Assembly (NCBI GenBank): GCA_965237415.1
Contig: CBDEFM010000002.1
Span: 1,152,001-1,216,000, forward strand
Origin: Alphaproteobacteria bacterium
GTDB taxonomy: Bacteria; Pseudomonadota; Alphaproteobacteria; UBA828
Direction: 5' to 3'
DNA: 64,000 nucleotides
Position 1 is the first letter of the stretch. Every line of letters starts with the position of its first letter. Made by a program: the position numbers and the translations under genes. The notes under the pieces were generated by a model. The model worked only from the letters and a program-made list of their open reading frames with translations. It searched no databases and was not told the DNA's origin. This document shows, in pieces, positions 34,671-62,954 of the stretch.

Positions 34671-36751
34671 CATCGCTCGGTGCCCTGCGGGCGCCCTACC
34701 TGCCGCCGTTCAGCTGGTCACGTCAGCGCGGCACGATCGTCGCCATCGCCGTGTTTGCCGCCACCATGATCGCGCTGCAGCTCATCACCGGCCAGGGCAT
34801 CGCCTATTTCGACATCAGCAGCATCAGCGCGAGCGCCGCGACGCTGGCACTCGCCGCGCTCGGCGAGACCATCGTCATCCTTGCGGGCGGGCTCGACCTC
34901 TCGGCGGGCGCGGTGATCTCGCTCGTCAACGTGGTCCTGGTCACCCAGCTCGCTCCCGCCGTCGATATGGGGACCGGCCTCTTCACCCTCGTCGCGCTGG
35001 TCATCGCGCTCGGCCTGGGCGCGGCCATCGGCGCCGTCAACGGCTTCCTCGTCGCCTATGTCCGCCTGCAGTCGATCGTGGTGACGCTCGCCACCATGTT
35101 CATCGCCCAGGGCGCGGCGCTGCTCGTGCTCAAGTTCCCCGGCGGCGAGATGCCGTGGGACTTCAGCCTGGTCTTCACCGGCGACCTGGTACCCGAGGGC
35201 CTGCCCGCCCCCGTCGTCGTCCTGGCAATCGCCATTCTGTTCTGGCTGCTGCTGAAGAACACGCGGATCGGCACGGGAATCTACGCCATCGGCAGCGACG
35301 AAGGATCGGCACAGGCCAACGGCGTGGATGTGCGGCGTACGCGCTTCCTCACCTTCACCTTCGCCGGCATGTGCTACGGCGCGGCCGGCCTCTTCATTAC
35401 CGCCAACATGGGCGGCGGAGACCCGCTGATCGGCGCGAAGATGCTGCTCCAGATTTTCGCCGCCGTCGTGCTGGGGGGCACGCTCATCGGCGGCGGCCGG
35501 GGCGGCGCCGTCGGCACGATCTTCGGTGCTCTCACCCTCACCGTCGTGGTCAACATCTTCCTCGTGCTGGGCGTGCGCACCTACTACACGCCGATCGTCG
35601 AGGGCTTGATCCTGCTCATCGCCGTTCTCGGCTTCTCGCTCGGCCGCGACTCGCCGGTGGTGGAGATCACCCGCTTCTGGCGGGCGACGCTGCGGGCGCT
35701 CCGGGAGTCCTCCCTTCCCTCCAAGCTGCGGGTCGTGGGCGAGCCGATTCGCCTCGGGGGACTGGACCCACCGGCAGGCGGCGGCTTCACTGCTGCCGCC
35801 GTCCCGTGGCTCGACCGGCACCGCGCGGTGCTGCGCTTCGCCGTGCCGGCCTACCTCTTCTACATCGTCATCCTGGGTACCACGCTCGGCATCTTCGGGG
35901 GCGGCTTCTCGCCGCTCGCCTACCTCAACGCCATGCTGATCCTGACCGCCTTTTTGGCGATTCTCGGCCTCGGCCAGGGCACGGTCATCATCACCGGCGG
36001 GCTCGATCTCTCGGTGCCGTGGACCATGACCTTCCCGGCGATCGTCGTCACCACCCTCTGCAACGGCGTCGACGCGCCGGCGGCGTGGGTTATCCCGGCG
36101 GCGCTCGGGATCGGGATCGCCATCGGCTTCCTCAACGGCATGACCATCGTGCTTTTCGGGCTCTCGCCGATCATCGTGACGCTTGCCATGAACGGCATCC
36201 TGGAGGGCGTGTCGCTGCTGTTCAGCTCGGGCGCGCCCATCGGCAAGGCGCCGCCCGCGCTGGCCTGGTTCGTCACCGGGCGCATCGGCGGCATCGCCCC
36301 GATAGGCTGGTTCCTCATCGTCTTCGTCGTTGCCGCGACCCTCTACCTGAACAGGAGCGCGCAGGGCCGGCGCATTTTCGCTGTCGGCAACAGCCAGCGC
36401 GTCAGCCGCCTCTCGGGCGTGCGGATCGGCTTCCCGATCGTCGGCGCCTACATGCTGAGCGGATTCTGCTCGGCGTTAGTCGGGGTCTTCCTCGCGGGCT
36501 TCAGCGGGCAGGCGTTCTTCGGCATGGGCGACCCTTACCTGCTCTCCTCGATCGCCGTCGTGGTGCTGGGCGGCACCCTCATTACCGGGGGGCGCGGCCA
36601 CTACTTGGGAATCCTGGGTGGCGCGCTCCTGTTCACCGGGCTTGGCATCATGCTCTCGGGCACGGTGCTGCCCGAGGCCGTGCGCAACATCATCTATGGC
36701 CTCGTCCTGCTCGGCGCGATCGTCGCGCTCCGAGAGCGCGCGGACACATAG
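34667..36751 (+). CDS. Fused double sugar-ABC permease
   Basis: Two RbsC-like halves (GGLDLS twice, VLGGT twice), 694 aa. Confidence 0.88.
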   Translation: MTSLGALRAPYLPPFSWSRQRGTIVAIAVFAATMIALQLITGQGIAYFDISSISASAATLALAALGETIVILAGGLDLSAGAVISLVNVVLVTQLAPAVDMGTGLFTLVALVIALGLGAAIGAVNGFLVAYVRLQSIVVTLATMFIAQGAALLVLKFPGGEMPWDFSLVFTGDLVPEGLPAPVVVLAIAILFWLLLKNTRIGTGIYAIGSDEGSAQANGVDVRRTRFLTFTFAGMCYGAAGLFITANMGGGDPLIGAKMLLQIFAAVVLGGTLIGGGRGGAVGTIFGALTLTVVVNIFLVLGVRTYYTPIVEGLILLIAVLGFSLGRDSPVVEITRFWRATLRALRESSLPSKLRVVGEPIRLGGLDPPAGGGFTAAAVPWLDRHRAVLRFAVPAYLFYIVILGTTLGIFGGGFSPLAYLNAMLILTAFLAILGLGQGTVIITGGLDLSVPWTMTFPAIVVTTLCNGVDAPAAWVIPAALGIGIAIGFLNGMTIVLFGLSPIIVTLAMNGILEGVSLLFSSGAPIGKAPPALAWFVTGRIGGIAPIGWFLIVFVVAATLYLNRSAQGRRIFAVGNSQRVSRLSGVRIGFPIVGAYMLSGFCSALVGVFLAGFSGQAFFGMGDPYLLSSIAVVVLGGTLITGGRGHYLGILGGALLFTGLGIMLSGTVLPEAVRNIIYGLVLLGAIVALRERADT

Positions 36752-36835
36752 CTCGCTCCGGGAGCGCGCGGACACATAGCTCGCTCCGGGGGCACGCGGA
36801 CGCATAGTTCGCTCCGAGAGCGCGCGGACGCATGA
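36722..36835 (+). repeat. 4 x 28-bp tandem repeat of the permease 3' end, including the stop codon
   Basis: GC(G/A)CGCGG at 36736, 36764, 36792 and 36820. Confidence 0.92.
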
Positions 36836-36854
36836 CCTTGGTGAGAAATCCGGC

Positions 36855-37913
36855 CTATTGGGTGAAGCGCGATTCGGTGTCTGCAGTGCCGAACTTGCGG
36901 CTGTCCTCGTCGCTCCACTCCTCGCCGCTCGCCTGGCTGGCAAATTTCTCGACCATGTAGTCGCCGGCGGTGATCGGCGGATATTTCGCCGGCCGCTCCG
37001 CACTTTGACAGGTCGGCAGACACTCGATCACCGCGTCGTGACGGGGTTCGACGAAATAGCAGAGCGAGAGGCGCCGCCCGGCGGTGCGCGGCGGGTTGAC
37101 CACGCGGTGCCGCGTAGAGCGCCAGCGGTCGTTCGTCCAGCGCATCATCTGGTCGCCGATATTGACCACGAACGATCCGGCGACGGCCGGCACGTCCACC
37201 CAGGTGCCGTCGGGGCTGCGCGCCTGCAGGCCACCCGGCTTGTCCTCGATCAGGCAGATGGTGAGGTTGTCGTAGTCCGAATGCTCGCCGGCGCGGAGCT
37301 GCCCCTCCTCCGCCGCCGTCCGCTGCTGCGGATAGTTCAACACGCGCAGGATGCTGAATCCGTTCTCGAGCCTTGGGTCGAAATGGTCCTCGGGAAGATC
37401 GAAGGCCAGCGCCGCAATCCTGTGCAGGTGCCGCCCCAGCCGGTCCAGCGCTTCGATATAGGCCTCGATCGCCGATTTGAACGCCGCCGGACGCTCCGGC
37501 CAGATATTGGGGGCGTAGTGGGGAGCCGCCGCCTCGGTGTGGAAGGAGGGGTCGTCCGGCACGTCGAGCGGGCCGAAGGAGAGCGATTCCTTCAGGTCGG
37601 GCGGCGTCTCCACGCCAATCGTCGCCGAGAGGTGCTCGGTGCCGAGCGGCTCGTAGCCCCGGTTTGCCTTGTCGTCCTGCCGCTGCCTGATGGCGAGCTT
37701 CTCCTCCAGCGGCAGGTCGAAGAACGCTCTCGCCTCGCGCTGTGCCCGCTCGCAGATCGCCGGGTCGACCCCGTGGCCGGAAATCAGGAAGAAGCCGATG
37801 CGCTCGCAGGCGCGGTTGACCTCGCCTGCGACCCGCCGCCTGTCGGCGTGGCCCCCGGCAAAATAGGGGCCGAGGTCGATGAGCGGGATCTCCGAGAAGG
37901 GTCCGGTGGACAT
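36855..37913 (-). CDS. IPNS-like 2OG-Fe(II) oxygenase
   Basis: IPLIDL, GFF, HSD, NIGD, STRHRV, R.S. Confidence 0.92.
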   Translation of the reverse strand: MSTGPFSEIPLIDLGPYFAGGHADRRRVAGEVNRACERIGFFLISGHGVDPAICERAQREARAFFDLPLEEKLAIRQRQDDKANRGYEPLGTEHLSATIGVETPPDLKESLSFGPLDVPDDPSFHTEAAAPHYAPNIWPERPAAFKSAIEAYIEALDRLGRHLHRIAALAFDLPEDHFDPRLENGFSILRVLNYPQQRTAAEEGQLRAGEHSDYDNLTICLIEDKPGGLQARSPDGTWVDVPAVAGSFVVNIGDQMMRWTNDRWRSTRHRVVNPPRTAGRRLSLCYFVEPRHDAVIECLPTCQSAERPAKYPPITAGDYMVEKFASQASGEEWSDEDSRKFGTADTESRFTQ

Positions 37914-37998
37914 GGATACTGCTCGCGTGCCGGGCTACAGGCCCTCAGCCGCCGGCCGCCACAACGCGTAGAGGGCCGGCGGCGCGGTTCGCGCCCTC

Positions 37999-38913
37999 CT
38001 AATCCGCGGCGGGCGCGCCCTCGGTCGTGCGGTTGAAGGGATGGCGGCGTTTGAAGTCCTCGGCCATCTCCCGCATCGTGACCATGCGCACGCCGGTATG
38101 CGCGAGCATGTGGTCGAAGATCCGCTCCAGCATCATCAGCACTTGCGGTTTGCCGGCGCAATCGGGATGGATCACGCAGGTGTAGATCGCGTAGTCGTAG
38201 TGGCGGTAGATCCAGTCGAACTGGTCGCGCCAGATGTCCTCGACGTCCCGGGGATTCACCCAGCCGTGGCTGTTGGGGAAGGTCTTCACGAACATCATGG
38301 GCGGCGCGTCGTCGAGGTACCAGCTCGCGGGCAGCTCGACGAGATCGACCGCGTCACCCGCCACCCAGGGCTTCATCCACGATGCGGCTTCCTGGGTGTA
38401 GTCGATCTTGGTCCAGCTATCGCCCCTGCGCAGATAGTGCGGCGTGTAGTCATCCTCCATGACGCTGCGGTCGTAGAGGAAATTGCGCTCCATAAGGAGG
38501 TCGATGGTATTGGGACTCAGTTCCCACCACGGCGCGACATAGCCCACGGGGTGCACGCCGCAGAGGTCGGTCACCAGCTCGATGCACTTGTCGAGGACAT
38601 CGGCCTCCTGCTGGCGGGACATGGCGAGCGGGTTCTCATGGGTGTAGCCGTGCACCCCCAGCTCGTGGCCGTGCTTCACGATCAATTCCGATTCTTTCGG
38701 GAAGCTCTCGATCGAATGGCCGGTGATGTCCCACGTCGTCTTGATGCCGTAGCGCTCCATCATCTCCAGGATTCGCGGCACCCCTTGGCGCGCCGCGAAG
38801 ACGCCGCGCGAGATGTCGCAAGGTGAGTCGGCACCGCCGAACGATCCGATCCAGAGCGAAACCGAATCGAAATGGGGATTGAAGCAAACCTGGATGTCTT
38901 TCTTCGTGGCCAT
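37999..38913 (-). CDS. Polysaccharide deacetylase family (PuuE/HP0310-like) amidohydrolase
   Basis: GHELGVHGYTHE, GYVAPWWE, WYLDD, IHP. Confidence 0.88.
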   Translation of the reverse strand: MATKKDIQVCFNPHFDSVSLWIGSFGGADSPCDISRGVFAARQGVPRILEMMERYGIKTTWDITGHSIESFPKESELIVKHGHELGVHGYTHENPLAMSRQQEADVLDKCIELVTDLCGVHPVGYVAPWWELSPNTIDLLMERNFLYDRSVMEDDYTPHYLRRGDSWTKIDYTQEAASWMKPWVAGDAVDLVELPASWYLDDAPPMMFVKTFPNSHGWVNPRDVEDIWRDQFDWIYRHYDYAIYTCVIHPDCAGKPQVLMMLERIFDHMLAHTGVRMVTMREMAEDFKRRHPFNRTTEGAPAAD

Positions 38914-38995
38914 GATCCTGCCTCCCTTTGTCGCCGCATCGCGGCGGGTATCGTCAGCCGATGCCTCCTGTCTCAGGCGTCTGTGTACTCCCGAC

Positions 38996-39086
38996 GCATG
39001 TCATGCATCCGCGCGCTCTCGCAGCATGTCATGCATCCACGCGCTCCCGGAGCGTGTCATGCATCCGCGCGCTCCCGGAGCGCGAC
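38996..39086 (-). repeat. 3 x 28-bp tandem repeat of the permease 3' end, including the stop codon
   Basis: CC(G/A)CGCGC at 39009, 39037 and 39065. Confidence 0.92.
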
Positions 39087-41192
39087 GATAGCGCCGAGAA
39101 GGACTAGCCCATAGATGATACTGCGCACCGCCTCGGGCAGCATCGTCCCCGTCAGCAGCGAGCCGAGCGCCGTGAACAGCAAGGCGCCGCCGAGGATGCC
39201 GACGAAGTGGCCGCGCCCGCCTGTGATCAGCGTGCCGCCCAGCACCACCACGGCGATCGACTGCAGCAGGTATGGATCCCCCATGCCGAAGAACGCCTGC
39301 CCGCTGAAGCCCGAGAGAAACACGCCCACCAGCGCGGAGCAGAAGCCGCTCAGCATGTAGGCGCCCACGATGACGGAGCCGGTCCAGACGCCGGAAAGGT
39401 GCGCGACCGTGACGCTGTTGCCGACCGCGTAGAGCCGCCGCCCGAAGGCCGTCCGGTTGAGGAAGATCGTGGCTGCGATCGCGAAGGCGATCAGGAACCA
39501 GCCGATGGGTGCGATGCCGAGCAGTCGGCCCGATACGAACCAGCGCAACACGGGCGGCGAGCCGCCGATCGGTGCGCCGTCGCTGAAGATGAGCGAAATG
39601 CCCTCGAGCAGGCCTGCCATCGCCAGTGTGACGATGATCGGCGACAACCTGAAGAGCACGATCATGAACCCGTTCAGGAAGCCGATCGCAAGGCCGATCA
39701 CCAGCGCAAGCGGCACCGCCCAATAGGCCGGACCGTCCTTGCCGAAGCAGAAGGTGGTGACGACGATGGCCGGGAAGGTGATGGCCCAGGCGACCGAGAG
39801 GTCGAGCCCGCCGGAGATGATGACCGCGCCCTGACCCAGCCCGAGGATCGCGAGAAAGGCGGTGAACAGCAGGAGGACGTTGAGATATTCGAGCGCCGAC
39901 AGGTCCCCGCCGAAAATCACCACCGTGGCGATCACGATCACGGCGAACATGACGTAGGTGGGAGAGATGTAGCGCAGCGTGGCCTGGTTGCGGGCGAGCC
40001 AGCCTGCCGCCGGGCGGGCAGAGCCGGGCCCGCCGCGCGCGTCCGCCCGCCCCAGCAGGTCCTGCAACAACCCCTGGCCCGCCGCCGTCACACTTGCCGC
40101 GGGGCTCGATGCAAGGGCCCGGGTGCTGAGCGCGCGCCTCCAGCCGCGCACGGTCTCGACCACGGGCATGTCCCGACTCAGCGAGAGGCCGAGCACGGCA
40201 AGGATCAGGATGGCGCCTTCGGCAAGCGGCACGTACCAGGTGCGCATGCCGAGAAGGAGGAAGATCGTCAGGATGATCGTGAGTGTCAGCGCACCGAAGA
40301 TGGTGCCGACGCAGCCACCGCGCCCACCGCCGATCAGCGTCCCGCCGATGACCACCGCGGCGAATATCTTAAGCAGAAACTTGGCGCCGATCAGCGGGTC
40401 GGCGGAGCCGATCTGGGCCGTCATGAACATGCCGGCGGCGCCGTAGCAGACGCCGGCGATGGTGTAGGTCCAGAACTTCGTCATCCGCACGTCGGTGCCG
40501 CTCGCCAGCGCCGACTTTTCGTCGCTGCCGATGGCGTAGATTCCGGTCCCGAGCCGCGAATTGCGCAGTGCCAGCCACAGCACGATGACGACCGCGAGCA
40601 CGATGATGGGCGCAGGCAACACCCCGGCGATGGCCTCGCCGGTGAAGAACATGCTGAACTCCCACGGCGCCTCGCCGCCTGCATGAGTCATCACCAGCAA
40701 GGCCGCACCTTGCGCGATGAACATCGTGGCGAGCGTGACGACGATTGCCGACAGGCCGAGAAAGGCGATCAGGAAGCCGTTGATCGCACCGATCGCGGCG
40801 CCCACCGCAAGCGCCAGCGCGAGCGCGGCCCCGATGAACTCGGCGCCCGAAAGCACGGCAACATCGGAAGAGAACTCGGAACCGCCGCCGAGGAACTGGA
40901 TGATCATGACGTTGACGAGCGAGATCACCGCACCTGCGGACAGGTCGAAGCCTCCGGCCAGGATGACGATGGTCTCGCCCACGGCGGCAAGCGCCAGGGT
41001 GGCGGCTCCGGTGGTGATGGAGCTCACGTCGAAATAGGTGATCCCTTCGCCCTTGATGAGCTGCAGGATGATCAGCATCACCAGGAACACACCGACCGAC
41101 ATCAGGAGGCCGCGCTGACGATTCCAGTTCACGGCAGGCAAGCCGACCCGCGGCCACCGCGACGGCGGCGGCACCAACGATCGATCGCTCAA
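39057..41192 (-). CDS. Fused double sugar-ABC permease (paralog of 34667..36751)
   Basis: Two permease halves; ends IVALRERADA. Confidence 0.88.
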   Translation of the reverse strand: MSDRSLVPPPSRWPRVGLPAVNWNRQRGLLMSVGVFLVMLIILQLIKGEGITYFDVSSITTGAATLALAAVGETIVILAGGFDLSAGAVISLVNVMIIQFLGGGSEFSSDVAVLSGAEFIGAALALALAVGAAIGAINGFLIAFLGLSAIVVTLATMFIAQGAALLVMTHAGGEAPWEFSMFFTGEAIAGVLPAPIIVLAVVIVLWLALRNSRLGTGIYAIGSDEKSALASGTDVRMTKFWTYTIAGVCYGAAGMFMTAQIGSADPLIGAKFLLKIFAAVVIGGTLIGGGRGGCVGTIFGALTLTIILTIFLLLGMRTWYVPLAEGAILILAVLGLSLSRDMPVVETVRGWRRALSTRALASSPAASVTAAGQGLLQDLLGRADARGGPGSARPAAGWLARNQATLRYISPTYVMFAVIVIATVVIFGGDLSALEYLNVLLLFTAFLAILGLGQGAVIISGGLDLSVAWAITFPAIVVTTFCFGKDGPAYWAVPLALVIGLAIGFLNGFMIVLFRLSPIIVTLAMAGLLEGISLIFSDGAPIGGSPPVLRWFVSGRLLGIAPIGWFLIAFAIAATIFLNRTAFGRRLYAVGNSVTVAHLSGVWTGSVIVGAYMLSGFCSALVGVFLSGFSGQAFFGMGDPYLLQSIAVVVLGGTLITGGRGHFVGILGGALLFTALGSLLTGTMLPEAVRSIIYGLVLLGAIVALRERADA

Positions 41193-42724: not shown

Positions 42725-42809
42725 GGCAGCGCGTCAGGCCCGGCGGAGGCCTCCGTACGGAACCCGCTTGCGCGGGCCCCGAACGGAAGATGCCTCGCAG
42801 GCAGCCCGT

Positions 42810-43934
42810 CTACTGACCTTCCGGTACCGTGCCCTCGAGCGCTGAGAACAGGTCGAGCTCGCTGACCCAGGGATGCCAGACATCGACGAAATAGTTCGGC
42901 GGCACCCCGAGATCGGGATGGTAGGTGTTGCAGTTGCGCTCCAGCAACTCCTCGCGCGTCCCCTCGGTGCAGACCACGACCTGGCCCGGCTCGACCAGCG
43001 GCATCGGCACCTGGGTGAAGCGCGGCGGCTCCGCACCGCCGTCGGCATAGGCCACGGCGATCTTGAGAGCGTAGGCGCCCAGCCAGGTGGGCGAGCCCAT
43101 GGAGCTGCTCTTCATGCCCAACGCGCCCGGCACCGAGCCGGGCTCGGCGATGGCAATGCGGTGGCCGTTGGTGCCGTTACCGGCGCAGGGCACGAGCTGG
43201 TCCGCCCGGCCGGCCTCGACCTGGATCTGCGACAACATGTAGCAGCCCACCTGGGTCCACAGCCCATCGATGTTGTCCCAGCCGTGGGTGGCGACGATCT
43301 TGGTCAGCTCCTGCCTGGCGTGGGCGTTGTTCCAGTTGCTGTACGCATGAACCAGGATGCTGATATCGGGGTATTGGGAGAAGACCTCCATGGCGCCGTC
43401 GGTGCGGGCGTGATCGATGTAGTGCCCGGGGTAACCGCCCATGACGATGATGCTGCCCTTGCCGCCGAGTTCCTCGGCCAGATATTCCGCGGGTCCCGCG
43501 CCGGCCCAGGTCTGATCGAGGCCGATATGGTAGGCGCAGGGCTCGGTCACCGACGCGTCGAAGGTCATCACGATGATGCCCCTCTCGCACGCCTGACGGA
43601 TCGAGCGATTGAGCGCGGTGCGCGAGTTCGGCCACAGGATGATGATGTCGGCATCGCCCTGCATCATGGCGTTGACCTGCTGGATCTGAGTCTGGATGTC
43701 GCCCCGGGCCGATTGCATGTTGAGCTCCGCCCGGTCCTTGTAGGCCTTGGTCTTGGCCATGGCGCTGATCAGGTTCTGCGCCGCATCCATCCAGGTGTTG
43801 CCCTCGAATCCCACGCTGACGAAGACCTTGTACTTGTCCTCCTGGGCCGCCGCCGGCGACGGGCCGAAGATGCCGCCCACCGCCAGTGCCAGGGCAGCGA
43901 TCGCCAACACTGCGAGTTTCGCCCGTTTGATCAT
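42810..43934 (-). CDS. Sugar-type ABC substrate-binding protein
   Basis: Signal peptide; GFEGNTWMDAA shared with 31885..33006. Confidence 0.88.
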   Translation of the reverse strand: MIKRAKLAVLAIAALALAVGGIFGPSPAAAQEDKYKVFVSVGFEGNTWMDAAQNLISAMAKTKAYKDRAELNMQSARGDIQTQIQQVNAMMQGDADIIILWPNSRTALNRSIRQACERGIIVMTFDASVTEPCAYHIGLDQTWAGAGPAEYLAEELGGKGSIIVMGGYPGHYIDHARTDGAMEVFSQYPDISILVHAYSNWNNAHARQELTKIVATHGWDNIDGLWTQVGCYMLSQIQVEAGRADQLVPCAGNGTNGHRIAIAEPGSVPGALGMKSSSMGSPTWLGAYALKIAVAYADGGAEPPRFTQVPMPLVEPGQVVVCTEGTREELLERNCNTYHPDLGVPPNYFVDVWHPWVSELDLFSALEGTVPEGQ

Positions 43935-43946
43935 GTTTTCCTCCCT

Positions 43947-44014
43947 TGGTTATGAGCCTTTGAGCAGCTCTCTTGTCGTTTGGTTATGAGCCTTCAAGAG
44001 GCTCTGTTGTTGTT
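43947..44014 (-). repeat. 2 x 34-bp imperfect tandem repeat in the binding-protein leader
   Basis: TGGTTATGAGCCTT at 43947 and 43981. Confidence 0.75.
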
Positions 44015-44036
44015 GCCTGGGGTCCCGCCCTACGTC

Positions 44037-45059
44037 TCAAGGCTGATCGGACGCCCGCTCTCCCGAGGCGCCGATGGCGGTCATCATCAGGAACTTGTCC
44101 AGCAGGTTCTTGCCCGTGGTGACCGGCGGGTACTTGGCCGGATTGTCCGCGCTCTGGCAGGCCGGGAAACATTCGATGATGGTGTCGTAGTTCGTATAGA
44201 AGAAGAAGATCATCGACTGCCGGCGGCTGTCGCTCGCCTTATCCCGCGGCGGGTTGACAACCCGGTGCAAGGTGGAGACCCAGCGGTCGTTGGTCCACAT
44301 CTGCATCTGGTCGCCGAGATTGATGCTGAAGGCATTGGGCACCACCGGCACGTCCACCCATTCGCCGTCGCGGTTCATGGCCTGGAGGCCGCCGGGCCTG
44401 TCCTCGATCCAGCAGATCGTGCAGGCGCCGAAATCGGAGTGCGCGCTGGCGCGGAACTGGTTATCCAGAGGCGGGGCGGGCTGATCCGGGTAGTTGAGGA
44501 CGCGAAACTGGCTGACGTGCCTGTCGACCCGCGTATCGAAATAGTTTTCGTCGAGGTCGAGGGCGCAGGCGAAGATTCGCATGAGCGTGAAGGCGAGGCG
44601 CTCCATCGCATCCCAGTATGCGAGCCAGATTTCCTCGAGCTCGGCAGGACGCGCGGGCCAGCGGTTCTCGACAAAGTGCTGGCCGGCTTCGCCGCAGTGA
44701 AAGTAGGGCTCGTCCGGCACATCGGGCGGGCCGACGGTCAGCGATTCCTTGAGGTCTCCGGGGCCGCGCGCGCCGCGGCTCTCGGCCAGGCACTCCTTGA
44801 GGGCAGGGCTGTAACCCCTGATGACGTCGTCCGCCCAGCGCTCGATCGTCATCTTCTCCGCCAGCGGCAGATCGAAGAAGTGCCGGCTGACGTCGTAGGT
44901 TGCCCCGGTCAGCGCCGGGTCGACCCCGTGGCCGGTGATGACGAAGAATCCGATATCCTCACACGCCTGCTTGACCTCGGCCGCCACGCGCGCCTTGCCG
45001 TCGCGGTCGCCGCCGAGAAACGGCGCAATGTCGATAACGGGAACCTGACGAAGGGTCAT
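44037..45059 (-). CDS. IPNS-like 2OG-Fe(II) oxygenase (paralog of 36855..37913)
   Basis: VPVIDI, HSD, NLGD, STLHRV, RQS. Confidence 0.92.
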   Translation of the reverse strand: MTLRQVPVIDIAPFLGGDRDGKARVAAEVKQACEDIGFFVITGHGVDPALTGATYDVSRHFFDLPLAEKMTIERWADDVIRGYSPALKECLAESRGARGPGDLKESLTVGPPDVPDEPYFHCGEAGQHFVENRWPARPAELEEIWLAYWDAMERLAFTLMRIFACALDLDENYFDTRVDRHVSQFRVLNYPDQPAPPLDNQFRASAHSDFGACTICWIEDRPGGLQAMNRDGEWVDVPVVPNAFSINLGDQMQMWTNDRWVSTLHRVVNPPRDKASDSRRQSMIFFFYTNYDTIIECFPACQSADNPAKYPPVTTGKNLLDKFLMMTAIGASGERASDQP

Positions 45060-47439: not shown

Positions 47440-47530
47440 GCGCGTCGGCCTTGTGGCCCTGATGCCGGCCCGGCACCGGGAGTTTCTGCCGGTGCCGGCT
47501 TCGCCCGCAGGTGTCTGAGGGGAGGGAGCC

Positions 47531-47875: not shown

Positions 47876-47917
47876 CCCGGAATTCTCGCCAAGGTCACGG
47901 CCTTCGCGGCGGCGTCT

Positions 47918-48754: not shown

Positions 48755-49671
48755 CGCTTGAGCCCCTCGAAGACCTCTCCGAACCCGCCGAGCCTGAGCA
48801 TCAGAAGACGAAGCACGAAGAGCAGCGCGACCATGGCGACGAGGATGACCGTCGCCATTGCGGCGGCCACCGCATAGTTGAGCGCCGTCAAGAGACTGTG
48901 CACGGAGTTGCCCAGCAGGTGGGCGTGCCCGCCGCCGAGCAGCGAAGGAATAACGTCGGCGCCCAGCATGGGGACGAAGGTGAAAACGATCCCGGCGATG
49001 ATGCCCGGCATCACCAGGGGAAGAATGACGTGCAACAAGGTGTGAACCGTACCGCCGCCGAGATCCCGGCTCGCCTGCAGCAGCTCGTCGTCGATCATCA
49101 CGGCGGCCAGGAATATCGGGAACACCATGGTGGGGAAGTAGGGCCCGATGAGTCCCAGATGCACCGCGAACTCGGAAAAGAGCAGCCAGTCGAGCGGTTC
49201 GTCGATCAGTCCGAGGCCCATGAGCGCGCTATTGACGAAACCCTGGGTGCCGAGCACCGCCCGCCAGACGATGGTGCGCGCCGCCACGCTCAGGAAGAAC
49301 GGAACCGTCAGAAGCGCCAGCGTCATCGCGCGGATCGGGGCGGATTGGGTCCCTTTGGCCAACCAGAGAGCGAAGGGGAGCGCAACCAGCAGCTCGATCG
49401 CCGTCACCGTCGCGGCAATGCGGAACGTCCGGAGCGTTACCGACCAGCGGCCCGACTCGAAAAGATTGAGATAGGCGTCAACGTTCGGGTCGAAGTAGAC
49501 GCGAAAACCCTTAATCGAGAGAAACGACCAGACCACGAGGCCAATCAAGGGCACCAGCATCACCAACGCCCAAACCACCATGAAGGCCCAGACCGGGCCG
49601 TGGCGTTCGCCCACCAGCCCGCGGAGAAAATGCAAGGCGGGCGGCGGACTGCCGAAGCTCCTAGCCCGCAA
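48751..49671 (-). CDS. Polyamine-type ABC permease (PotB-like); native start separated by a MITE
   Basis: ASRDLG EAA loop; the current TTG start lies inside the MITE terminal repeat, and the original ATG is at 50015-50017. Confidence 0.8.
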   Translation of the reverse strand: MRARSFGSPPPALHFLRGLVGERHGPVWAFMVVWALVMLVPLIGLVVWSFLSIKGFRVYFDPNVDAYLNLFESGRWSVTLRTFRIAATVTAIELLVALPFALWLAKGTQSAPIRAMTLALLTVPFFLSVAARTIVWRAVLGTQGFVNSALMGLGLIDEPLDWLLFSEFAVHLGLIGPYFPTMVFPIFLAAVMIDDELLQASRDLGGGTVHTLLHVILPLVMPGIIAGIVFTFVPMLGADVIPSLLGGGHAHLLGNSVHSLLTALNYAVAAAMATVILVAMVALLFVLRLLMLRLGGFGEVFEGLKR

Positions 49672-50013
49672 TTCTCACGACGGTCATGGTCTGCGCGGCG
49701 CTCTCCGGCCGACAGGGTAGGAACGGCGCGCAGCGCATCGTGCGCTCCCGCGCGCGTCCCGCGCGACGCAGGACATCGGGCAAGCGCCGTGACGCACACT
49801 GTCGGCCGGAGAGCGCCGCCCTTCGGGTCGCGCCCAGGCGCCCGCCCGCATCGTGCGCTCCGCGCGCGTCCCGCGCGACGTCGCGGGCCTCAACCGTAGA
49901 CACCGATACGCTTTTCGGCCCGCTCCTGGCGGATCGAACGTCTGGGTGCATCGTGCGCTCCGCGCGCGTCCCGCGCGACGCAGGCCGTGACCCTGGAGAG
50001 AAATGCGGGCTAG
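49661..50013. mobile_element. MITE-like non-autonomous element with CTAG flanks
   Basis: CTAG at 49661 and 50010; imperfect terminal inverted repeats CCCGCA(A/T)TTCTC...GGTCA(T/C)GG; removing the element restores the permease N-terminus MSRSFGSPPP. Confidence 0.8.
49735..49980. repeat. 3 x ~33-bp direct repeats separated by unique ~79 and 67 bp spacers
   Basis: GCATCGTGCGCTC(C)CGCGCGCGTCCCGCGCGACG at 49735, 49848 and 49948. Confidence 0.9.
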
Positions 50014-50085
50014 ACATGACCTACGGCTTCAGCAGCCCGCCATCCTTCGTCATTGCGCAGAGATATCGCCGCAAGCAGCCTGACG

Positions 50086-51276
50086 TTACGCCTGAACGAA
50101 ACGATCCCACTCGGATTCGATGGCCTGCGCATTATCCGGCGCGGCATTCTGCCAGAACTGCTCGGCGGTAAACTTCTTCTCGATCTTGGCGAGGTTCTCC
50201 TCGATGGACTGGATCTTCTCGGGTTCCCAGTTCTCCGACTTGGCGTACTCGAGTCCCAGTTGCGGGTTCCCCGTCACATAGCCGCGCAGCACGGCGATCT
50301 GGGCGCTGTACGCGCCGCCGAGGAAACCGTCGATCGCACGGTAGATCGTCTCGAGGTTGCCGCGCTCCGCCGCCTGCGCGGGGATGTAGGCCCCCAGCAT
50401 CCACTTGTTGTATCCCTCGACGGTGTAGGCATAGCGGACGTTGTGGCCCTGGCGCTGAAGCGCCTTTACCGCCGGCTCCCAACAGTTCTGGACGATGACT
50501 TCGCCGTTGGCCATGAGGTCGATAGACTCCTCCCAGGTACCCCAGAGGGACCGGAACTGGCCGGCGTTCTTGCGCTCGATGAGGAAGTCCGCCGTCGTCT
50601 TCGCTTCTTCGGGGGTCATGTTGGACGGCTGGTCGATGGTCGCCAGGCCGTGGTGCTTCAGGTACATGCCCGCCATGGCGAACGTGGTGAGCCAGGTATC
50701 CTCCAGCGAGACCTTGCCCATGGTCTCTTCGCTGTCGAAGAGGAGGTCGTAGGTCAGCGGCTCCTCGCGATTGAGCTGGTCGGGGAAATAGGCGAAGGAA
50801 TCGGCGTTGAAGACGATGGGGACTCCGTACTGGGTGCCGTCCTTGCCGCGAAGCAGGGGACTGCGCTTGACCGTATCGGGCACGCCGTCCCAGCGCTTCA
50901 TGGCGGATTCGTCGATCGGCATGATGAGGCCTTCCGGAGCCAGACGATCCTCCACGCCGCCGTCGAAGCAGAACATGTCGAAATCGTCGCCGGCGGCATC
51001 GGCGATGGCCTCTTTCAGGAACACACCGGGATCGCTGGCGATCGCCTTCCACTCGACGGTGATCCCGGTCTCCGCAGTAAAGGCAGACCAGTCGTCCAGC
51101 GCAACCACGTTCGGGCCGATGATCCTGATGGTCGTTTCCTCGGCCCTCGCCTGCCTCGGCGAGGTCTTGAGGATTGCCGGCGCGGCAATGGCCGCACCAA
51201 GTGCCGCCGAGCCCTTGAGGAAGTTGCGACGGCTGCGCCCTTTCGCCGTCCGGGCACCATTCTCGCGTTTAGACAC
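50086..51276 (-). CDS. Tat-exported PotD-like substrate-binding protein
   Basis: SRRNFLKG Tat motif, FTAETGI, YGVP; GTG start after AGGGAGGG. Confidence 0.85.
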   Translation of the reverse strand: MSKRENGARTAKGRSRRNFLKGSAALGAAIAAPAILKTSPRQARAEETTIRIIGPNVVALDDWSAFTAETGITVEWKAIASDPGVFLKEAIADAAGDDFDMFCFDGGVEDRLAPEGLIMPIDESAMKRWDGVPDTVKRSPLLRGKDGTQYGVPIVFNADSFAYFPDQLNREEPLTYDLLFDSEETMGKVSLEDTWLTTFAMAGMYLKHHGLATIDQPSNMTPEEAKTTADFLIERKNAGQFRSLWGTWEESIDLMANGEVIVQNCWEPAVKALQRQGHNVRYAYTVEGYNKWMLGAYIPAQAAERGNLETIYRAIDGFLGGAYSAQIAVLRGYVTGNPQLGLEYAKSENWEPEKIQSIEENLAKIEKKFTAEQFWQNAAPDNAQAIESEWDRFVQA

Positions 51277-51485
51277 TGCATTCCCTCCCTGTGTCGTTGT
51301 TGGAGACAAGAGTAGCTGCATGACCGGCGCCGCTCAACAGACCGGCACGGCGACACAGCCGCCGGGCTCTTCATCGATCTGGATGCCGTCCTCTTCCGAC
51401 GGCATCACCCATTAAGCTGCGTCAACGCGTTGGAGGCGGGCTTGCCTCCTGCTGACTCGGGTTGCCGAACGACGCGCCCGGAGGG

Positions 51486-53543: not shown

Positions 53544-53545
53544 GC

Positions 53546-55363
53546 CTACCCCGACGATTCGTCCGCGGCGCGCAGGGCCGCCGTCGCGTCTTCATCGACG
53601 CTGTAGTCGACCCCGTTCTCGGCCAACTTGAGCACCACCTTGTAGGCGCTTTCGGCGCGTTCCGCGCTGATCCACTCGCGATTGGTTGCGGCCGCGACCT
53701 TCGCCGGATCGCGGGATGACGGATCGCCGTATCCGCCACCGCCGCAGGTCACGAAGCGCAGCATTTCGCCGGGCAGGAAGATATCCGAGGCGAAGGGCTC
53801 GAGCTTCTCGAGCTGGCCGTTGCGGTGGCGCTTCAGGTTGGCGGAGCAGGCCGAATCCATCCCGCCGATCACCCCGCGCGGCGGCGACACGTCGCCGTCG
53901 CTGCCCCAGTAAGCGGTCATCTCGCCCGCGAGCGGGCCGAACTCGCCCTCCAGCGCAGGCGCGCCGTCCCATTCGCCCGGACCCAGCGAATCCTTGGCGA
54001 TCTGGCGGGAGGTTATGATGATCGGGTACATGCTCTCGTCGATCTCGATCGAGTCGAGGCGCATCTGCCCGCCGTCGCAGGCCGCGCCGCTCAGCAGCCA
54101 TCCGTCGTAGCCATAGAGGCCCGGCCCGCTGCCGTAGCCGATGAAGACCTGGTTCACGTAGGGGTGGTCGCCCTTGCGCGGGTCGCTGCCGGAAATGACG
54201 GCTTCGCCGCTGCTCTGGGAATAGGCGAACTCGCCCATTCCGTAAGGTTGGCCGATCTGCGAGAAGCAACAGGTGACGGCGGTGATCAGCCGTGAGTTCA
54301 CGTTCGTCGTCGCGACCGATGTGCCGGCGGGATATTTCGGCCGCCCGACCACGCAACCGTCGCGCAGCAGCACATTGATGCGGGACGCGCTGCCCTGGTT
54401 GTGCGGAATGCTGGCGTCGAGGTTGTAGAATACCCCGATGCGGCAGGATGCGGCGGCACAGGCCTCGGACAGGTTGATCCCGCCGGGCACGCAATCGATG
54501 TTGTCGCGGGCATCGACGGTCACCTCTCCCGCATCGGGATCGATGGTGACGAAGACCTTGACCGGCACCCCGTCATCGGCGACGCCGGGCACCGGATCGT
54601 GGCAGGTCTCGTAGGTCCAGGTGCCCTTCGGCAGCTTCTCGATCTCGGCGATGGCCCGGCGCTCACCGTAGTCCATCCAGTCCTCGATGAAGTCCCTGAT
54701 CGTCTCTTTGCCGTAACGCTCGACCAGCTCCTTGAGCCGCCGCTCGGCGGTCCGACAGGCGCCGATCTGGGCGAGATAGTCGCCATACCAGATTTCGCCG
54801 ACCCGGATTTTGATGCGGCACATGCGAATGATGTCGTTCTTGTCCTTGAAGTTTTCCTGAACCCGGACGCAGGGGAGATGCACGCCCTCCTCGTATATCG
54901 TGGCCGCTTCGGGCAGGTAGGTGCTGGGGATCGGCGCGCCGATATCCGCGTGATGAGAACGTGACAGCGCCCAGAAGAGAGGCTCGCCATCGCAGAAAAC
55001 CGGGACGCAGACGGTGATATCCGCATGATGGGTCGCACCGGTGTAGGGGCAGTTGTTGATGTAGGCGTCGCCTTCCTTAATGTCGTCGAAGAATCCGGTG
55101 ATCGGCATCGTGGTGAGCTCGAGCGCAATGACATGCACCGGAACGACATCCTCGACGCAGAGCAGCCGGTGGTCGTAGGTCAGCAAGCCGCACGACATGT
55201 CGCGCGAGTTCTTGATCACCGCAGACCGGCTCGCCTTCATGACGGTGTTCACCATCTCGCGGCTGATCGCCTCGAGCCGGTGCGACAGGACCGAGAGCAG
55301 GAAGGGCTCGATGCGTTGTTCCGAGCGCCGTGACGGGGCCTCTTGCCCCTCGGCCTTCACCAT
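53546..55363 (-). CDS. Hydantoinase B/oxoprolinase family protein
   Basis: NCPYTGATHHAD, SHHADIG, IYEEG, GGGGYGDP. Confidence 0.93.
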   Translation of the reverse strand: MVKAEGQEAPSRRSEQRIEPFLLSVLSHRLEAISREMVNTVMKASRSAVIKNSRDMSCGLLTYDHRLLCVEDVVPVHVIALELTTMPITGFFDDIKEGDAYINNCPYTGATHHADITVCVPVFCDGEPLFWALSRSHHADIGAPIPSTYLPEAATIYEEGVHLPCVRVQENFKDKNDIIRMCRIKIRVGEIWYGDYLAQIGACRTAERRLKELVERYGKETIRDFIEDWMDYGERRAIAEIEKLPKGTWTYETCHDPVPGVADDGVPVKVFVTIDPDAGEVTVDARDNIDCVPGGINLSEACAAASCRIGVFYNLDASIPHNQGSASRINVLLRDGCVVGRPKYPAGTSVATTNVNSRLITAVTCCFSQIGQPYGMGEFAYSQSSGEAVISGSDPRKGDHPYVNQVFIGYGSGPGLYGYDGWLLSGAACDGGQMRLDSIEIDESMYPIIITSRQIAKDSLGPGEWDGAPALEGEFGPLAGEMTAYWGSDGDVSPPRGVIGGMDSACSANLKRHRNGQLEKLEPFASDIFLPGEMLRFVTCGGGGYGDPSSRDPAKVAAATNREWISAERAESAYKVVLKLAENGVDYSVDEDATAALRAADESSG

Positions 55364-55732
55364 TGCCGTCTCCCCGTCGTTCGAGGCCGGCCGCGTTGAT
55401 GGTTGCTTGTGGCGGCCGCGCGCCGGAATTATTTCACGGCGTCTCGTCCGGGCGCCGTTCGATCCACTATCCGTGCCCCATTTTTCCTGTCAAGAATGGC
55501 ACGGCCAGGCGTGTCGAAGCGGCTCACGCGGCCTTCCGGGTTTGGGTGTCGATGACCGCCGCGTCAGTCCCCGGGCCGTTTACCGACGTCGGGCCAGTCC
55601 CTCAAGCTCACGCCGCTCCGATGCCGACAAGCCCGCATTTTTCACCACGGTCATGGTCTGCGCTGCTCTGTCCGCCGGTCACCCCTCCGACACAATCGAC
55701 GAACATTTTCTCATAGGCCGTTCGGTGAAGAC

Positions 55733-55754
55733 GCCATGTCAGATACGACATGGC
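55733..55754. promoter_or_regulatory. Perfect 8-6-8 palindrome, possible operator
   Basis: GCCATGTC-agatac-GACATGGC in an AT-richer stretch upstream of the hydB-hydA-pot operon. Confidence 0.4.
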
Positions 55755-56011
55755 AATTTACCTGTTCTACATGGCTGAGTTGCGGGATAATGTGTCGTTC
55801 CGCCGCCGGTATCCCTGTCCTCGCTGGGCCGGCCGTAGCGTAGTCGCGGCGTTGCGTCCGATCCCAGGCCGGCGGCGGACAAAGCCCCGGCGCCGCTGGC
55901 GGCCACCGTTTGCCTCCTGGGCTCTCGACCGTCGCGCGGCGCCGGGGCCGTCTCTTTGTACACCGGAGATCTGGCCTGCGCTCTCTGCGCGTGTGCCGCG
56001 CATCTTCGTTT

Positions 56012-56134
56012 CGCGCGCGTTCTGCGTGACCTCTGTCCGCGCGCGTTCTGCGTGACCTCTGTCCGCGCGCGTTCCGCGTGACCTCTGTCCGCGCGCGTTC
56101 CGCGCGACCTCTGTCCGCGCGCGTTCCGCGCGAC
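56012..56134. repeat. 26-bp tandem repeat (4 full copies plus 1 partial)
   Basis: CTCTGTCCGCGCGCGTTC(C/T)GCG(C/T)GAC starting at 56031, 56057, 56083 and 56109. Confidence 0.95.
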
Positions 56135-56140
56135 CCCCGC

Positions 56141-56527
56141 TCATGCGTTGCCTGCCAGCAGGTGGGCGTTGATCTGGTCGAGCTGCTTGTCGAGGCCGGC
56201 GATCATCTTGTCCGTGCCGTCGAGCGTCGCGCGGAGCGCCGCGATCTCCCCCTGCACCGCCGTGACCGAGCGGCCGAGGGCGGCGAACTCGCGGGCATCG
56301 GGGAGGGCTTCGAGCGCGGTGGAGAGCTTGACCAGGCCGCGCTCGACGGTCTCCATGCGCGCGCCCAAGGCGCCGACGCCGGTGTCGCGCTTCTCCAGGT
56401 CGCCCAGGCTCTTGCTGGCGACGGCGCCGGCGGATTCGAGCCGGCGCACCCGCACGAAGAGGCCGACGCAGGCGCCGACGACGGCACCCACCGCACCGCG
56501 CGCGACCCAGGTTTCGAGGTCGCTCAT
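56141..56527 (-). CDS. Mu-like phage membrane-anchored coiled-coil protein (DUF2730-like)
   Basis: N-terminal TM segment, coiled coil, LEALP and V.GEI motifs; follows the holin. Confidence 0.6.
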   Translation of the reverse strand: MSDLETWVARGAVGAVVGACVGLFVRVRRLESAGAVASKSLGDLEKRDTGVGALGARMETVERGLVKLSTALEALPDAREFAALGRSVTAVQGEIAALRATLDGTDKMIAGLDKQLDQINAHLLAGNA

Positions 56528-57051
56528 CGGGCCGCTCCGCCCTCGCGCGGACGCCGCTTCTCGATCTGGCGGGAACCGAACCACCAGAGCATCGCGGCGG
56601 TGAAGAGATAGAGCACGGTCTCGACGATGCGGGGCCGGAGGCCCATGGCTGCGAGATCGGACGCGCCCAGCAGGAAGTAGATCGCGCCCACGAGGGCGAA
56701 GAGGCTCCAGGTGAGCAACGGCCGCGTGAGGCCCCGCACGGCGTCGACGAATTGCATGAGCCGGCCTTCGCCGGGGCGGGACCAGCGCCGGCTGGCCTCC
56801 CGGTACGAGGCTTCAAGCGCTTCCCACTCGGCCCGCTCCCGCGTGGCCTGGGCCTCGATGGCGGCGTGGGCCGCGGCGCCCTCGGCCTCGGCCTTCGCGA
56901 GCTCGATGTCGAGGCGGCGCAGGTCCAGCTCCTGGCTGTGCTGCTGGCGGGACTGGAAGAAGTCGACGACGGCCGAAAGCGCCGTGCCCAGCAGCCCGGT
57001 TGCGCCGCCGGTGAGCACCGAGGCGCCGAGATTGAAGAGGGTCTCAAGCAT
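56524..57051 (-). CDS. Putative phage holin
   Basis: TM segments, VRGLTRP and WWFGSR motifs typical of 3TM-type holins. Confidence 0.65.
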   Translation of the reverse strand: MLETLFNLGASVLTGGATGLLGTALSAVVDFFQSRQQHSQELDLRRLDIELAKAEAEGAAAHAAIEAQATRERAEWEALEASYREASRRWSRPGEGRLMQFVDAVRGLTRPLLTWSLFALVGAIYFLLGASDLAAMGLRPRIVETVLYLFTAAMLWWFGSRQIEKRRPREGGAAR

Positions 57052-57526
57052 TGTTCATCTCCCGCGCGCCTGCCGGCGCGACTATCTCCCGCGCGCCTGC
57101 CGGCGCGACCTCCAACACGAAGGGCCGGTCTGCGGCCCAGTCCATGAGATGGCGAAAGGCCGTGCGGGAGGCGAACACCGCCGCCTGGCGGCGCCCGCTC
57201 ACGGTCATCCGCCCCCGGCGGAGGCCCGGCAGCAGGCAGCCCGATGTGTGGGTATGCCAGCCGCGCTCCACGTCGCCGCCGAGGTTGCCGGCATGGAAGA
57301 GGATGTGGCTGCGGCCTTGCACCTGCGTCACCAGCAGGCAACGCCGGTGGCGCGGCGACAGGTGCGGCACCACCTCGTAGAGCCCGGCCGGGATGCAGGA
57401 GCGGTTGCGCCGGTTGCCGCGCCAGGGCGGCTCCATGATGCAGAGAGGCGGAAGGCCGGGGCCGCTCAGGACCCCCAGCGTGCCCTGCTCGCTCTCCTGC
57501 TCCCGCCTGAGGATCGCCCGCTGCAT
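57044..57526 (-). CDS. DUF5675 family protein (putative phage lysin)
   Basis: GTLG, E.PW..N...SCIPAG.Y, ILFHAGN, T.GCLLPG. Confidence 0.75.
   Translation of the reverse strand: MQRAILRREQESEQGTLGVLSGPGLPPLCIMEPPWRGNRRNRSCIPAGLYEVVPHLSPRHRRCLLVTQVQGRSHILFHAGNLGGDVERGWHTHTSGCLLPGLRRGRMTVSGRRQAAVFASRTAFRHLMDWAADRPFVLEVAPAGAREIVAPAGAREMNNA
57056..57109 (-). repeat. 2 x 27-bp in-frame tandem duplication (VAPAGARE twice)
   Basis: ATCTCCCGCGCGCCTGCCGGCGCGAC occurs twice with period 27. Confidence 0.95.
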
Positions 57527-59552: not shown

Positions 59553-59565
59553 AAGGGAGAAGCAG

Positions 59566-62953: not shown

Positions 62954-62954
62954 C

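Follow-up and report, generated by a model that had tools for sequence, protein, structure and literature searches.

We describe here a family of short DNA hairpins found in a 64,000-nt stretch (the window) of the genome of an alphaproteobacterium of the uncultivated UBA828 lineage (GenBank assembly GCA_965237415.1, contig CBDEFM010000002.1, positions 1,152,001 to 1,216,000; C2:1152001-1216000 of G000 in our numbering, a genome of 4.75 Mb with 66.7% G+C that is 96% complete). An earlier note on this DNA had drawn attention to one hairpin motif recurring at five loci of the window. We propose that the five loci represent a single genus-specific hairpin family of the repetitive extragenic palindrome (REP) type that amplifies in place by replication error at the DNA level, a reading to which, taken as a whole statement, we assign a probability of roughly 0.6. 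Two of its components were observed directly: the arrays are local copies of the hairpin together with 5-8 nt of its 3' flank, whole units of which differ between close relatives, and the five loci are part of a dispersed REP-type family with 76 genomic copies, which the earlier note had missed.

A search of the window for GTCGCGC-N4-8-GCGCGCGG returned nine matches (36722, 39065, 49748, 49860, 49960, 56089, 56115, 57062 and 57089), as compared to a mean of 0.11 in dinucleotide-preserving shuffles, none of 100 of which reached nine. Folding and inspection give each unit the same layout, namely an unpaired (C)GT, a 6-7 bp G/C stem CGCGCN(N), a loop of 3-4 nt and, as tail, an unpaired CGG, the outer five pairs of the stem being all G/C. 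The hairpin that had been claimed is therefore present, with its stem corrected to CGCGCN/N'GCGCG, of 6-7 bp, and with GT and CGG as unpaired flanks. Folded as single-stranded DNA, the individual hairpins reach -8.7 to -9.3 kcal/mol; the z-scores of these folds are modest because shuffled (CG)-rich sequence folds too. The variable innermost pair is more telling, as it is complementary in 72 of the 76 copies in the genome and in 25 of the 29 different loop types (G:C 15, C:G 6, T:A 3 and A:T 1), which indicates that the hairpin itself is conserved, beyond the letters alone. A C precedes GTC in 49 of the 76 copies; GTC was fixed by the search pattern. At C2:2822929-2822992 there is also a 28-nt array with a compensatory stem change, GTCGCCC...GGGCGCGG instead of GTCGCGC...GCGCGCGG, from which it follows that counts made with the exact pattern underestimate the family.

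The five loci and the four tandem arrays held up in position and period, the former through the nine exact matches and the latter through Tandem Repeats Finder (TRF). The first array, on the plus strand at 36722..36833 (TRF 36726-36833), has a period of 28 nt and 3.9 units, the first of which provides the final 10 codons and the TAG stop of a fused double-permease ABC transporter gene (34667-36751, plus strand; Pfam BPD_transp_2 twice) whose C-terminal V-A-L-R-E-R-A codons are the hairpin. The second, on the minus strand at 38988..39086 (TRF 38988-39081), likewise has a period of 28 nt, with 3.4 units, and its first unit forms the 3' end (last ten codons) and stop of a paralogous fused permease gene (39057-41132, minus strand) with the same two BPD_transp_2 domains and the same C-terminal hairpin; orthologues of this second permease share ~63% protein identity with the first. 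The third array lies on the minus strand at 56012..56134 (TRF 56012-56135; period 26 nt, 4.8 units), begins 6 nt past the stop of a prophage gene (56141-56527, DUF2730/phrog_736), and consists of units whose degeneracy grows toward the 3' direction. The fourth, also on the minus strand at 57056..57109 (TRF 57057-57109; period 27 nt, 2.0 units), is placed inside the 3' end of another prophage gene (57044-57526, DUF5675/phrog_1501), where both units are in frame and encode VAPAGAREI-VAPAGAREM. Pfam and PHROGs assign genes 56141-57526 to a prophage, in the order DUF2730/phrog_736, holin-like phrog_6637 and DUF5675/phrog_1501. By sequence reading and these domain assignments, it is correct that all four arrays lie at or just past gene 3' ends, in both ABC permease and phage genes, and that the motif is coding in three of them (both permease gene ends and the 57.1-kb prophage open reading frame, ORF).

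The motif extends well beyond the window. In G000 we counted 76 exact copies at 62 loci, as compared to four for a reversed-pattern control, and 53 of the 76 are intergenic in a genome that is ~83% coding, the coding fraction and all of the strand counts given below deriving from a crude custom codon-usage gene caller. In a census of G000 that took in both strands, 15,680 perfect hairpins with a stem of 6-8 bp and a loop of 3-5 nt were recorded, and the class GT/CGCGC.../CGG (n=69) is the commonest among them. When the motif was relaxed to one mismatch per arm, 1239 matches were obtained as against 1245 for the control, and this form was dropped for counts of dispersed copies. In the 40 relatives searched, all 20 congeners are enriched, with 10-67 copies versus 2-15 for the control (two congeners with 12 and 18 copies are only 62-67% complete), and outside the genus the counts fall to control level with one mild exception, G021, at 15 versus 5. 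The genome-wide scan that had been suggested thus bears out an enrichment, both in the source genome and throughout its genus. Several loop variants recur among species (GGATAC, GTCCAC, CGGCAG, CGGAAG, GGGAC and GGAAC). An inverted partner within 150 nt was found at only two of the 62 loci, both of them copies of one MITE, or miniature inverted-repeat transposable element, on C1. Rfam gave no matches in the window at gathering thresholds, and the literal motif 20-mer had no match in the literature searched, the broader searches having addressed classes of REPs and not this lineage.

There is a strong association between the motif and short tandem arrays. Allowing at most one mismatch per arm, the motif occurs in 16 of the 30 strongest G000 arrays with a period of 22-32 nt (TRF score of at least 100), as compared to 154 of 6000 length-matched random segments. 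Eighteen of the 76 exact copies have another exact copy as head-to-tail neighbour, and in G000 the start-to-start distances of such copies are 24 (1), 26 (1), 27 (5), 28 (2) and 30 nt (1). Across the genus, the pattern motif-N2-12-GTCGCGC yields 41 head-to-tail adjacencies in 13 of the 21 genomes and none with the reversed control, and the inter-unit spacers are confined to 5 nt (8), 6 nt (17), 7 nt (14) and 8 nt (2), with no case at 2-4 or 9-12 nt. For the 20-nt hairpins the spacer is mostly 7 nt and for the 21-nt ones mostly 6 nt, so that periods cluster at 27 within a genus range of 24-30. Of the motif-directed duplication process that the earlier note had suggested, what stands is that the motif is tied to 24-30-nt head-to-tail units, genome- and genus-wide; its rule that the period equals loop length plus 21 describes the four window arrays and does not extend to the genus, given these spacers of 5-8 nt and periods of 24-30 nt. 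Within an array the spacers are shared by the units, and between arrays they differ.

Some of these arrays lie in coding sequence elsewhere in the genome. Hairpin arrays cluster densely, in both orientations and apparently within a prophage, at C2:27346-28475; the cluster contains a minus-strand array at 27346-27420, a plus-strand array at 28064-28153 and, at 28394-28475, a variant with a 24-nt unit. Two arrays of 27-nt units (C2:28064-28153 and C2:3247886-3248004; loci L075 and L076) run in frame within ORFs and are read as nonapeptide repeats. One gives (Q/H)VAPEGARE x3 and belongs to an unknown ORF on the downstream side of a phage capsid-like gene; the other is a variant array near the 3' end of an SspB gene. 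The peptide VAPxGARE is common to these nonapeptide arrays and to the end of the DUF5675 gene of the window.

Comparison of orthologous loci indicates that it is whole units that vary. Across 22 orthologous loci, in both paralog groups, the permease arrays hold 1-4 units, these copy numbers and several other of our tallies having been read by eye. For the first paralog, one unit is present at L001, L002 and L005, two at L003, L004, L007, L009, L013, L014 and L015, and three at L008 and L010, as compared to 3.9 in the window (L006 runs off a contig edge); for the second, one is present at L018, L022, L023 and L025, two at L019, L020, L021 and L024, and three at L027, as compared to 3.4 in the window. 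In four more distant orthologs (L011, L012, L016 and L017) there is no array, and the peptide I/V-A-L-R-E-R is retained but written in different codons. When written as GCG CTC ... GAG CGC, Ala-Leu-x-Glu-Arg is a palindrome, and the hairpin in the permease genes is thus coding sequence; the array units are copies of this native gene end, stop codon included. Since single-copy species occur in both ortholog groups, the two permease paralogs have expanded independently and repeatedly, which removes the earlier caveat that these paralogous loci might not be independent. Another array, at C2:28065, has three exact units in G000 versus at least six in G004. In related genomes, where a check of copy number had been proposed, variation is seen, with 1-4 units at the permeases and from 0 to at least 2 at the DUF5675 site described below. 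Differing copy number at orthologous loci of related genomes is also what characterizes variable-number tandem repeats (VNTRs), or minisatellites.

These orthologous series bear directly on the idea that the arrays are artefacts of assembly or, alternatively, CRISPR-like or Cas1-made structures. The 26-28 nt unit does lie within the size range of CRISPR repeats, and the source genome is apparently metagenome-assembled, as are the records of all of its close relatives. However, many independent assemblies have arrays at the orthologous sites, with unlike copy numbers and with point differences, which argues against an assembly artefact, and there are no CRISPR-type unique spacers between units, which abut with 5-8 nt between them. 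Cas1 was not found in G000 (it is present in 9 of the 21 genus genomes, all of them congeners), and the CRISPR repeats of the genus are unrelated in sequence to the hairpin. We find this explanation barely credible.

The sister genome G041, which is ~96% identical to G000 and collinear with it, provides the closest comparison for the 57.1-kb array. G041 has no unit at this site (...TTCGTGTTGGAGATACACAATGCTTGA), so that the window is longer by 51 nt, in frame, and the spacer of the window array, GAGATA, is the native flank at the empty G041 site, which points to local duplication. Among five genomes the DUF5675 site carries zero, one, two or several degenerate units: of the other prophage relatives, G042 has one (net +27 nt, loop GGAA), and G043 and G044 have longer degenerate arrays. 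At this site the stem is kept and the loop drifts (GGCA, GGAA, GGTA). Units in three more distant prophage relatives imply that the DUF5675 site is old, and the empty G041 site may reflect a deletion between GGAG(AT) repeats. An initial use of the empty G041 sites as evidence of recent insertion was consequently dropped, as the five-genome alignment makes the DUF5675 site old and deletion possible. At the 56-kb site, ~110 nt of unrelated sequence in G041 replaces the array. In total, 266 kb of G000-G041 alignment contains 51 gaps of at least 12 nt, and those linked to the hairpin are C2:1201847 (27 nt), 1209059 (51 nt), the array region at 1208092, and 1445385 with 1445403 (27 nt in total, at the 3' end of a coding sequence). 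A 9-nt microsatellite, (ATCCCACTT)n, at C2:1251392 is 46 nt longer in G000 than in G041. A Mu-like prophage segment spans 56141-64000 of the window and is also in G041 at 93-97% identity. Besides the DUF2730, holin-like and DUF5675 genes, it encodes a CI-type repressor of the S24 family (58258-59130), an end-protection protein like Gam of Mu (59596-60108) and, from 62973, a large protein of phrog_18374.

The earlier note had placed the motif always on the transcribed strand. This is true within the window, where all five loci are sense, and it breaks down genome-wide, where the 16 motif arrays divide into 7 sense, 6 antisense and 3 ambiguous. The window itself supplies four of the seven sense arrays, so that outside it there are 3 sense versus 6 antisense, and two of the antisense arrays sit inside long, high-scoring genes. 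At the level of loci, intergenic copies between co-directional genes are 9 sense and 12 antisense, those between convergent genes (scored against the nearer gene end) are 8 and 8, a further 6 lie between divergent genes, and those inside coding sequences are 14 sense and 5 antisense. Hairpin orientation is independent of transcription and of gene strand. The distribution of co-directional, convergent and divergent loci, 21/16/6 observed versus ~22/10/11 expected from intergenic length, amounts to a weak preference for the 3' sides of genes, in line with what is reported for REPs generally. No clear replichore bias was seen, the strands being ~9:16 and 14:15 on two putative replichores (judged by eye, with a weak GC skew).

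These counts are also the place to consider whether the hairpins act in RNA, as 3'-end stabilisers or terminators selected in the sense direction at gene ends, with arrays strengthening the effect. The five sense loci of the window, four of them at or just past a gene 3' end, would be expected on such a scheme, as would the fact that 7 of 7 copies overlapping a 3' end of a coding sequence are sense genome-wide and that convergent gaps are enriched (16 vs ~10 expected) and divergent ones depleted (6 vs ~11). It does not, however, accommodate the 9 sense versus 12 antisense co-directional intergenic copies, the 3 versus 6 split of arrays outside the window, or the two antisense arrays inside long genes, and the window hairpins are followed by no T-run and match nothing in Rfam at gathering thresholds. 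We regard a selected role in RNA as very unlikely.

The fifth locus of the window, at 49.7-50.0 kb, had been taken for an array with spacers and is instead a MITE carrying three nested hairpin modules. It has the terminal inverted repeats, small size and many dispersed copies of such an element: the copy at 49662..50012 (minus strand) measures ~270 nt without its inserts, has terminal inverted repeats of ~34 nt (TAGCCCGCATTTCTCACC...), and belongs to a family of at least 30 genomic copies by BLAST. An alignment of 17 MITE copies resolves the terminal repeats and the empty versus filled sites, and most copies are without a hairpin. In the window copy, all on the minus strand, the module at site 3 (49736..49767) consists of the hairpin and the tail GAGCGCACGATG and adds a net 28 nt relative to empty copies; that at site 2 (49848..49879) adds a net 27 nt, as does that at site 1 (49948..49979). 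Each of these inserts can be written as GTCGCGCGGGACGCGCGCGG plus the tail (G)AGCGCACGATGC. In the orthologous MITE of G041, sites 1 and 3 are filled and site 2 is empty, with the consensus empty sequence. In other MITE copies the module is confined to site 1 or to site 2, or the insert is composite, and some have the site 2 or site 3 module in the opposite orientation with the loops GTCCAC or GGCCAC.

A flank-pairing screen of all 76 copies revealed the same empty/filled pattern in two further dispersed repeat families, where the majority of paralogs are empty, with 3-20 empty and 1-9 filled paralogs per insert site and differences between filled and empty of 25, 27 (five sites), 28, 29 and 29 nt. 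The nested module is 31-34 nt long with fixed ends, GTCGCGC and ~CGAT[G/C], and at the module sites 4-6 nt of the family consensus are missing (GTCGC, GCCGC, ATCGC, GGAGC, GAGG, CAAG, GACGCC). Two ways of making such an insert were rejected: a target-site duplication, as the 5-mers on the two sides differ from the target, and fold-back synthesis, as the 3' arm runs on as a constant tail and not as a complement of the local flank. The window contains, at 57626-57707 (C2:1209626-1209707), another dispersed repeat in its hairpin-free form (...GCCGGCGCCTCCGC GAGG GCGCCGCAGGAGCGGCGGGCCGCGG...), which is absent from the orthologous G041 site and of which other genomic copies carry a hairpin module at the GAGG position.

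For our preferred reading, replication error acting on a resident REP-type hairpin, we envisage the following. The family exists in two forms, a discrete module of ~31-32 nt (the hairpin and a tail of 10-12 nt) inserted in unique DNA or in other repeats, and short head-to-tail arrays. A hairpin of this stability would be extruded in single-stranded DNA at the replication fork, and its extrusion would then provoke duplications and deletions of whole units, with minisatellite-like copy-number variation as the presumed outcome, directed neither by transcription nor by gene strand. The family itself would persist through tolerance of the hairpin at gene ends and in linkers. Several observations sit poorly with this scheme. 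The spacer, narrowly held to 5-8 nt, and the quantum of ~27 nt that returns in arrays and nested inserts alike suggest a unit measured out by an enzyme more than they do random replication errors; the unit boundaries at 57.1 kb share at most 1 nt of microhomology, and classical slippage needs more; and slippage cannot put modules at new sites, so that some copying process is needed for the inserts, which fall into nine or more classes by site and orientation in three dispersed repeat families. A small residual strand bias also remains, in that loci within 60 nt of a stop or overlapping a 3' end of a coding sequence are 7 sense and 0 antisense, and the strand counts on which independence from the genes is based were themselves made with crude codon-usage gene calls. 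Spread of a module already present by gene conversion between paralogous repeats could account for some of the inserts.

Alternatively, the hairpin might be a tiny non-autonomous mobile element, a 27-32 nt module that is cut or copied as single-stranded DNA by an enzyme acting in trans and pasted without target duplication; a resident unit would recreate the preferred target, the element would target itself, and arrays would form. This would explain why nested inserts (25-29 nt, mostly 27) and array periods (24-30 nt, mode 27) have the same size quantum, why inserts of either orientation are seen at one and the same MITE site, and why the module ends are fixed and the 4-6 nt of target that are lost vary from site to site. 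Several targets do resemble the 5' end of the module (GTCGC, GCCGC, ATCGC), and the unpaired tag and tail are conserved, as for recognition by a protein. On the other hand, no candidate enzyme was found (Y1 transposases in none of 21 genomes, and neither an Ssn-like GIY-YIG protein nor Cas1 in G000, the genome richest in copies), and the array units carry locus-specific native flank, which makes them local copies and not imports. Gene conversion among the at least 30 MITE copies could move modules without transposition, and the empty sister sites may be deletions, given that three more distant genomes carry units at the DUF5675 site. We therefore consider a mobile element of this kind unlikely. 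In its boldest form, to which we are no more inclined, the hairpin is the core of a “nano-transposon” of 27-32 nt, the smallest mobile DNA, which would be copied both to new sites and beside itself by some enzyme other than a RAYT or an Ssn nuclease. Were this true, insert size and array period would alike be fixed by how far that enzyme measures (the hairpin plus 5-8 nt), and the genus, which appears to be associated with sponges, would provide clean empty/filled pairs on how CGTC-type REPs spread without a transposase.

The enzymes that might be expected to act on such a hairpin were looked for by several routes. Among the 21 genus genomes, G000 included, none has a match to the Y1 transposase domain of RAYTs (Y1_Tnp, PF01797), a profile that gave matches in 6 of 14 reference genomes used as a control. 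The REP/HUH-like nickase put forward in the earlier note thus found no support, nor did its other candidates: long target-site duplication is unlikely as a source of the arrays, there being nothing between the units, and no evidence emerged for an RNA-templated step. A REPtron-like search of the ORFs between or beside inverted arrays yielded a phage capsid-like gene, an unknown ORF and SspB, and no nuclease or transposase. For GIY-YIG nucleases (PF01541), G000 has only one 892-aa open frame, presumably UvrC, and tblastn of an Ssn-like protein from a congener against this 96% complete genome gave nothing better than E = 4.7.

With regard to known repeats, GTAG REPs and REPINs are GC-rich extragenic palindromes, clustered and strain-variable, that are thought to move as single-stranded DNA. 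The present family resembles them in being GC-rich, in clustering and in varying between genomes; it differs in having a GT instead of a GTAG tag, in the lack of any RAYT found in the 21 genomes, and in that direct repeats, not inverted doublets, are the main arrangement. Mycobacterial MIRU-VNTR loci are short tandem units at gene ends that overlap stops and vary in copy number between strains; their units are 40-100 bp, oriented with the operon and not built on one dispersed hairpin. Our arrays share with these minisatellites the tandem units at gene ends, the overlap with stops and the variable copy number, and unlike them have shorter units, built around one dispersed hairpin, with an orientation that is not bound to the gene.

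The closest relatives already described are the CGTC-tagged REPs and the Ssn-related motifs (SRMs). According to the relevant sections of PMC3733652 (Di Nocera, De Gregorio and Rocco 2013, BMC Genomics 14:522), CGTC-tagged REPs are mainly alphaproteobacterial, have 8-9 bp stems starting with A/T, 4-5 nt loops and a 3-nt tail that is mostly CCA, occur predominantly as head-head dimers with negligible head-tail dimers and rare clusters, and have no dedicated transposase. Judged by that account, the hairpins reported here are similar in being short palindromes with one end left unpaired as a tag (C-GTC in 49/76 copies) and with an unpaired tail of 3 nt, in being mainly alphaproteobacterial, mostly intergenic and at times inside genes or supplying gene ends, and in being uneven between species and without a dedicated transposase. 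They are unlike them, by the same account, in their 6-7 bp all-G/C stem, 3-4 nt loop and CGG tail, and in their head-to-tail arrays. A canonical CGTC-type hairpin (CGTCATGCCCGGAC-loop-...GGGCATCC) is present in G000 as a separate family, with 27 copies of CGTCATGCCCGGA, again without an Ssn-like gene having been found there.

In the case of the SRMs, the portions of PMC11893778 (Chenal et al. 2025, Nat Commun 16:2388) that concern them describe small GIY-YIG Ssn nucleases that bind NTS, a 28-nt CGTC-tagged hairpin of Neisseria, and SRMs in single-stranded form and cut a few nucleotides upstream of the motif, with ssn genes that are often flanked by the motif. As compared to that description, our family is likewise a hairpin of ~28 nt with an orientation set by conserved 5' bases and a C just 3' of the palindrome, present in tens to hundreds of copies, some of them clustered; G000, however, has no Ssn homolog that we could find, the Ssn-like genes of congeners are flanked by a different hairpin, and the stem is unrelated. 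Small GIY-YIG genes of congeners, of ~95 aa, adjoin a canonical CGTCAT-type hairpin or CGTCATTCCCGCG.

It might nevertheless be argued that the motif is a true SRM, the target of a small GIY-YIG nuclease whose gene was lost from G000 or not assembled. The layout, in which bases that are conserved and unpaired stand 5' of the palindrome and a C directly 3' of it, is that given for SRMs in the cited portions of PMC11893778, and 13 of the 21 genus genomes do have small GIY-YIG ORFs beyond UvrC. Yet at the six Ssn-like loci of congeners that were examined (L069-L074) a canonical hairpin (CGTCATGCCCGGAC... or CGTCATTCCCGCG...) lies downstream of five (L069 and L071-L074) and also upstream of four of those, could not be made out in the flanks of L070, and in the printed flanks of all six the GTCGCGC motif is absent (0/6). 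G000, without an Ssn homolog by hidden Markov model or tblastn, has the highest motif count of all, 76; across the genus the motif counts do not, by eye, track the small GIY-YIG gene, the genomes without it having 76, 57, 49 and 49 copies. The 6-7 bp all-G/C stem also departs from the 8-9 bp stems starting with A/T of the families described in the sections of PMC3733652 noted above. We judge identity with the SRMs to be quite unlikely. Having failed to match on stem composition and length, tail, head-to-tail arrangement and ssn association, as these are set out in the published descriptions, the family is filed outside both CGTC-tagged REPs and SRMs, as a variant of the REP kind.

Since the description of CGTC-tagged REPs, the question of how REPs multiply without a RAYT has stood open, and the family reported here offers unusually sharp material for it, as a module with defined ends, with many paralogous and orthologous empty/filled pairs that differ by ~27 nt and with array units of the same size, in a genome where none of the known partner enzymes (RAYT, Ssn or Cas1) was found. 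Taken otherwise, it is an ordinary class of bacterial repeat. The arrays do add or alter C-terminal residues and stops in permeases, in a prophage DUF5675 protein and in the linker of SspB; they also corrupt ORF calls, and would be of use as markers for typing strains of this uncultivated lineage.

Elsewhere in the window, at 43946-44014, a 34-nt unit that is unusually rich in AT (TTGGTTATGAGCCTTCAAGAAGCTCTCTTGTCGT) stands twice in tandem, upstream of the divergent genes 42810-43934 and 44037-45059, in a gap that may be a regulatory region.

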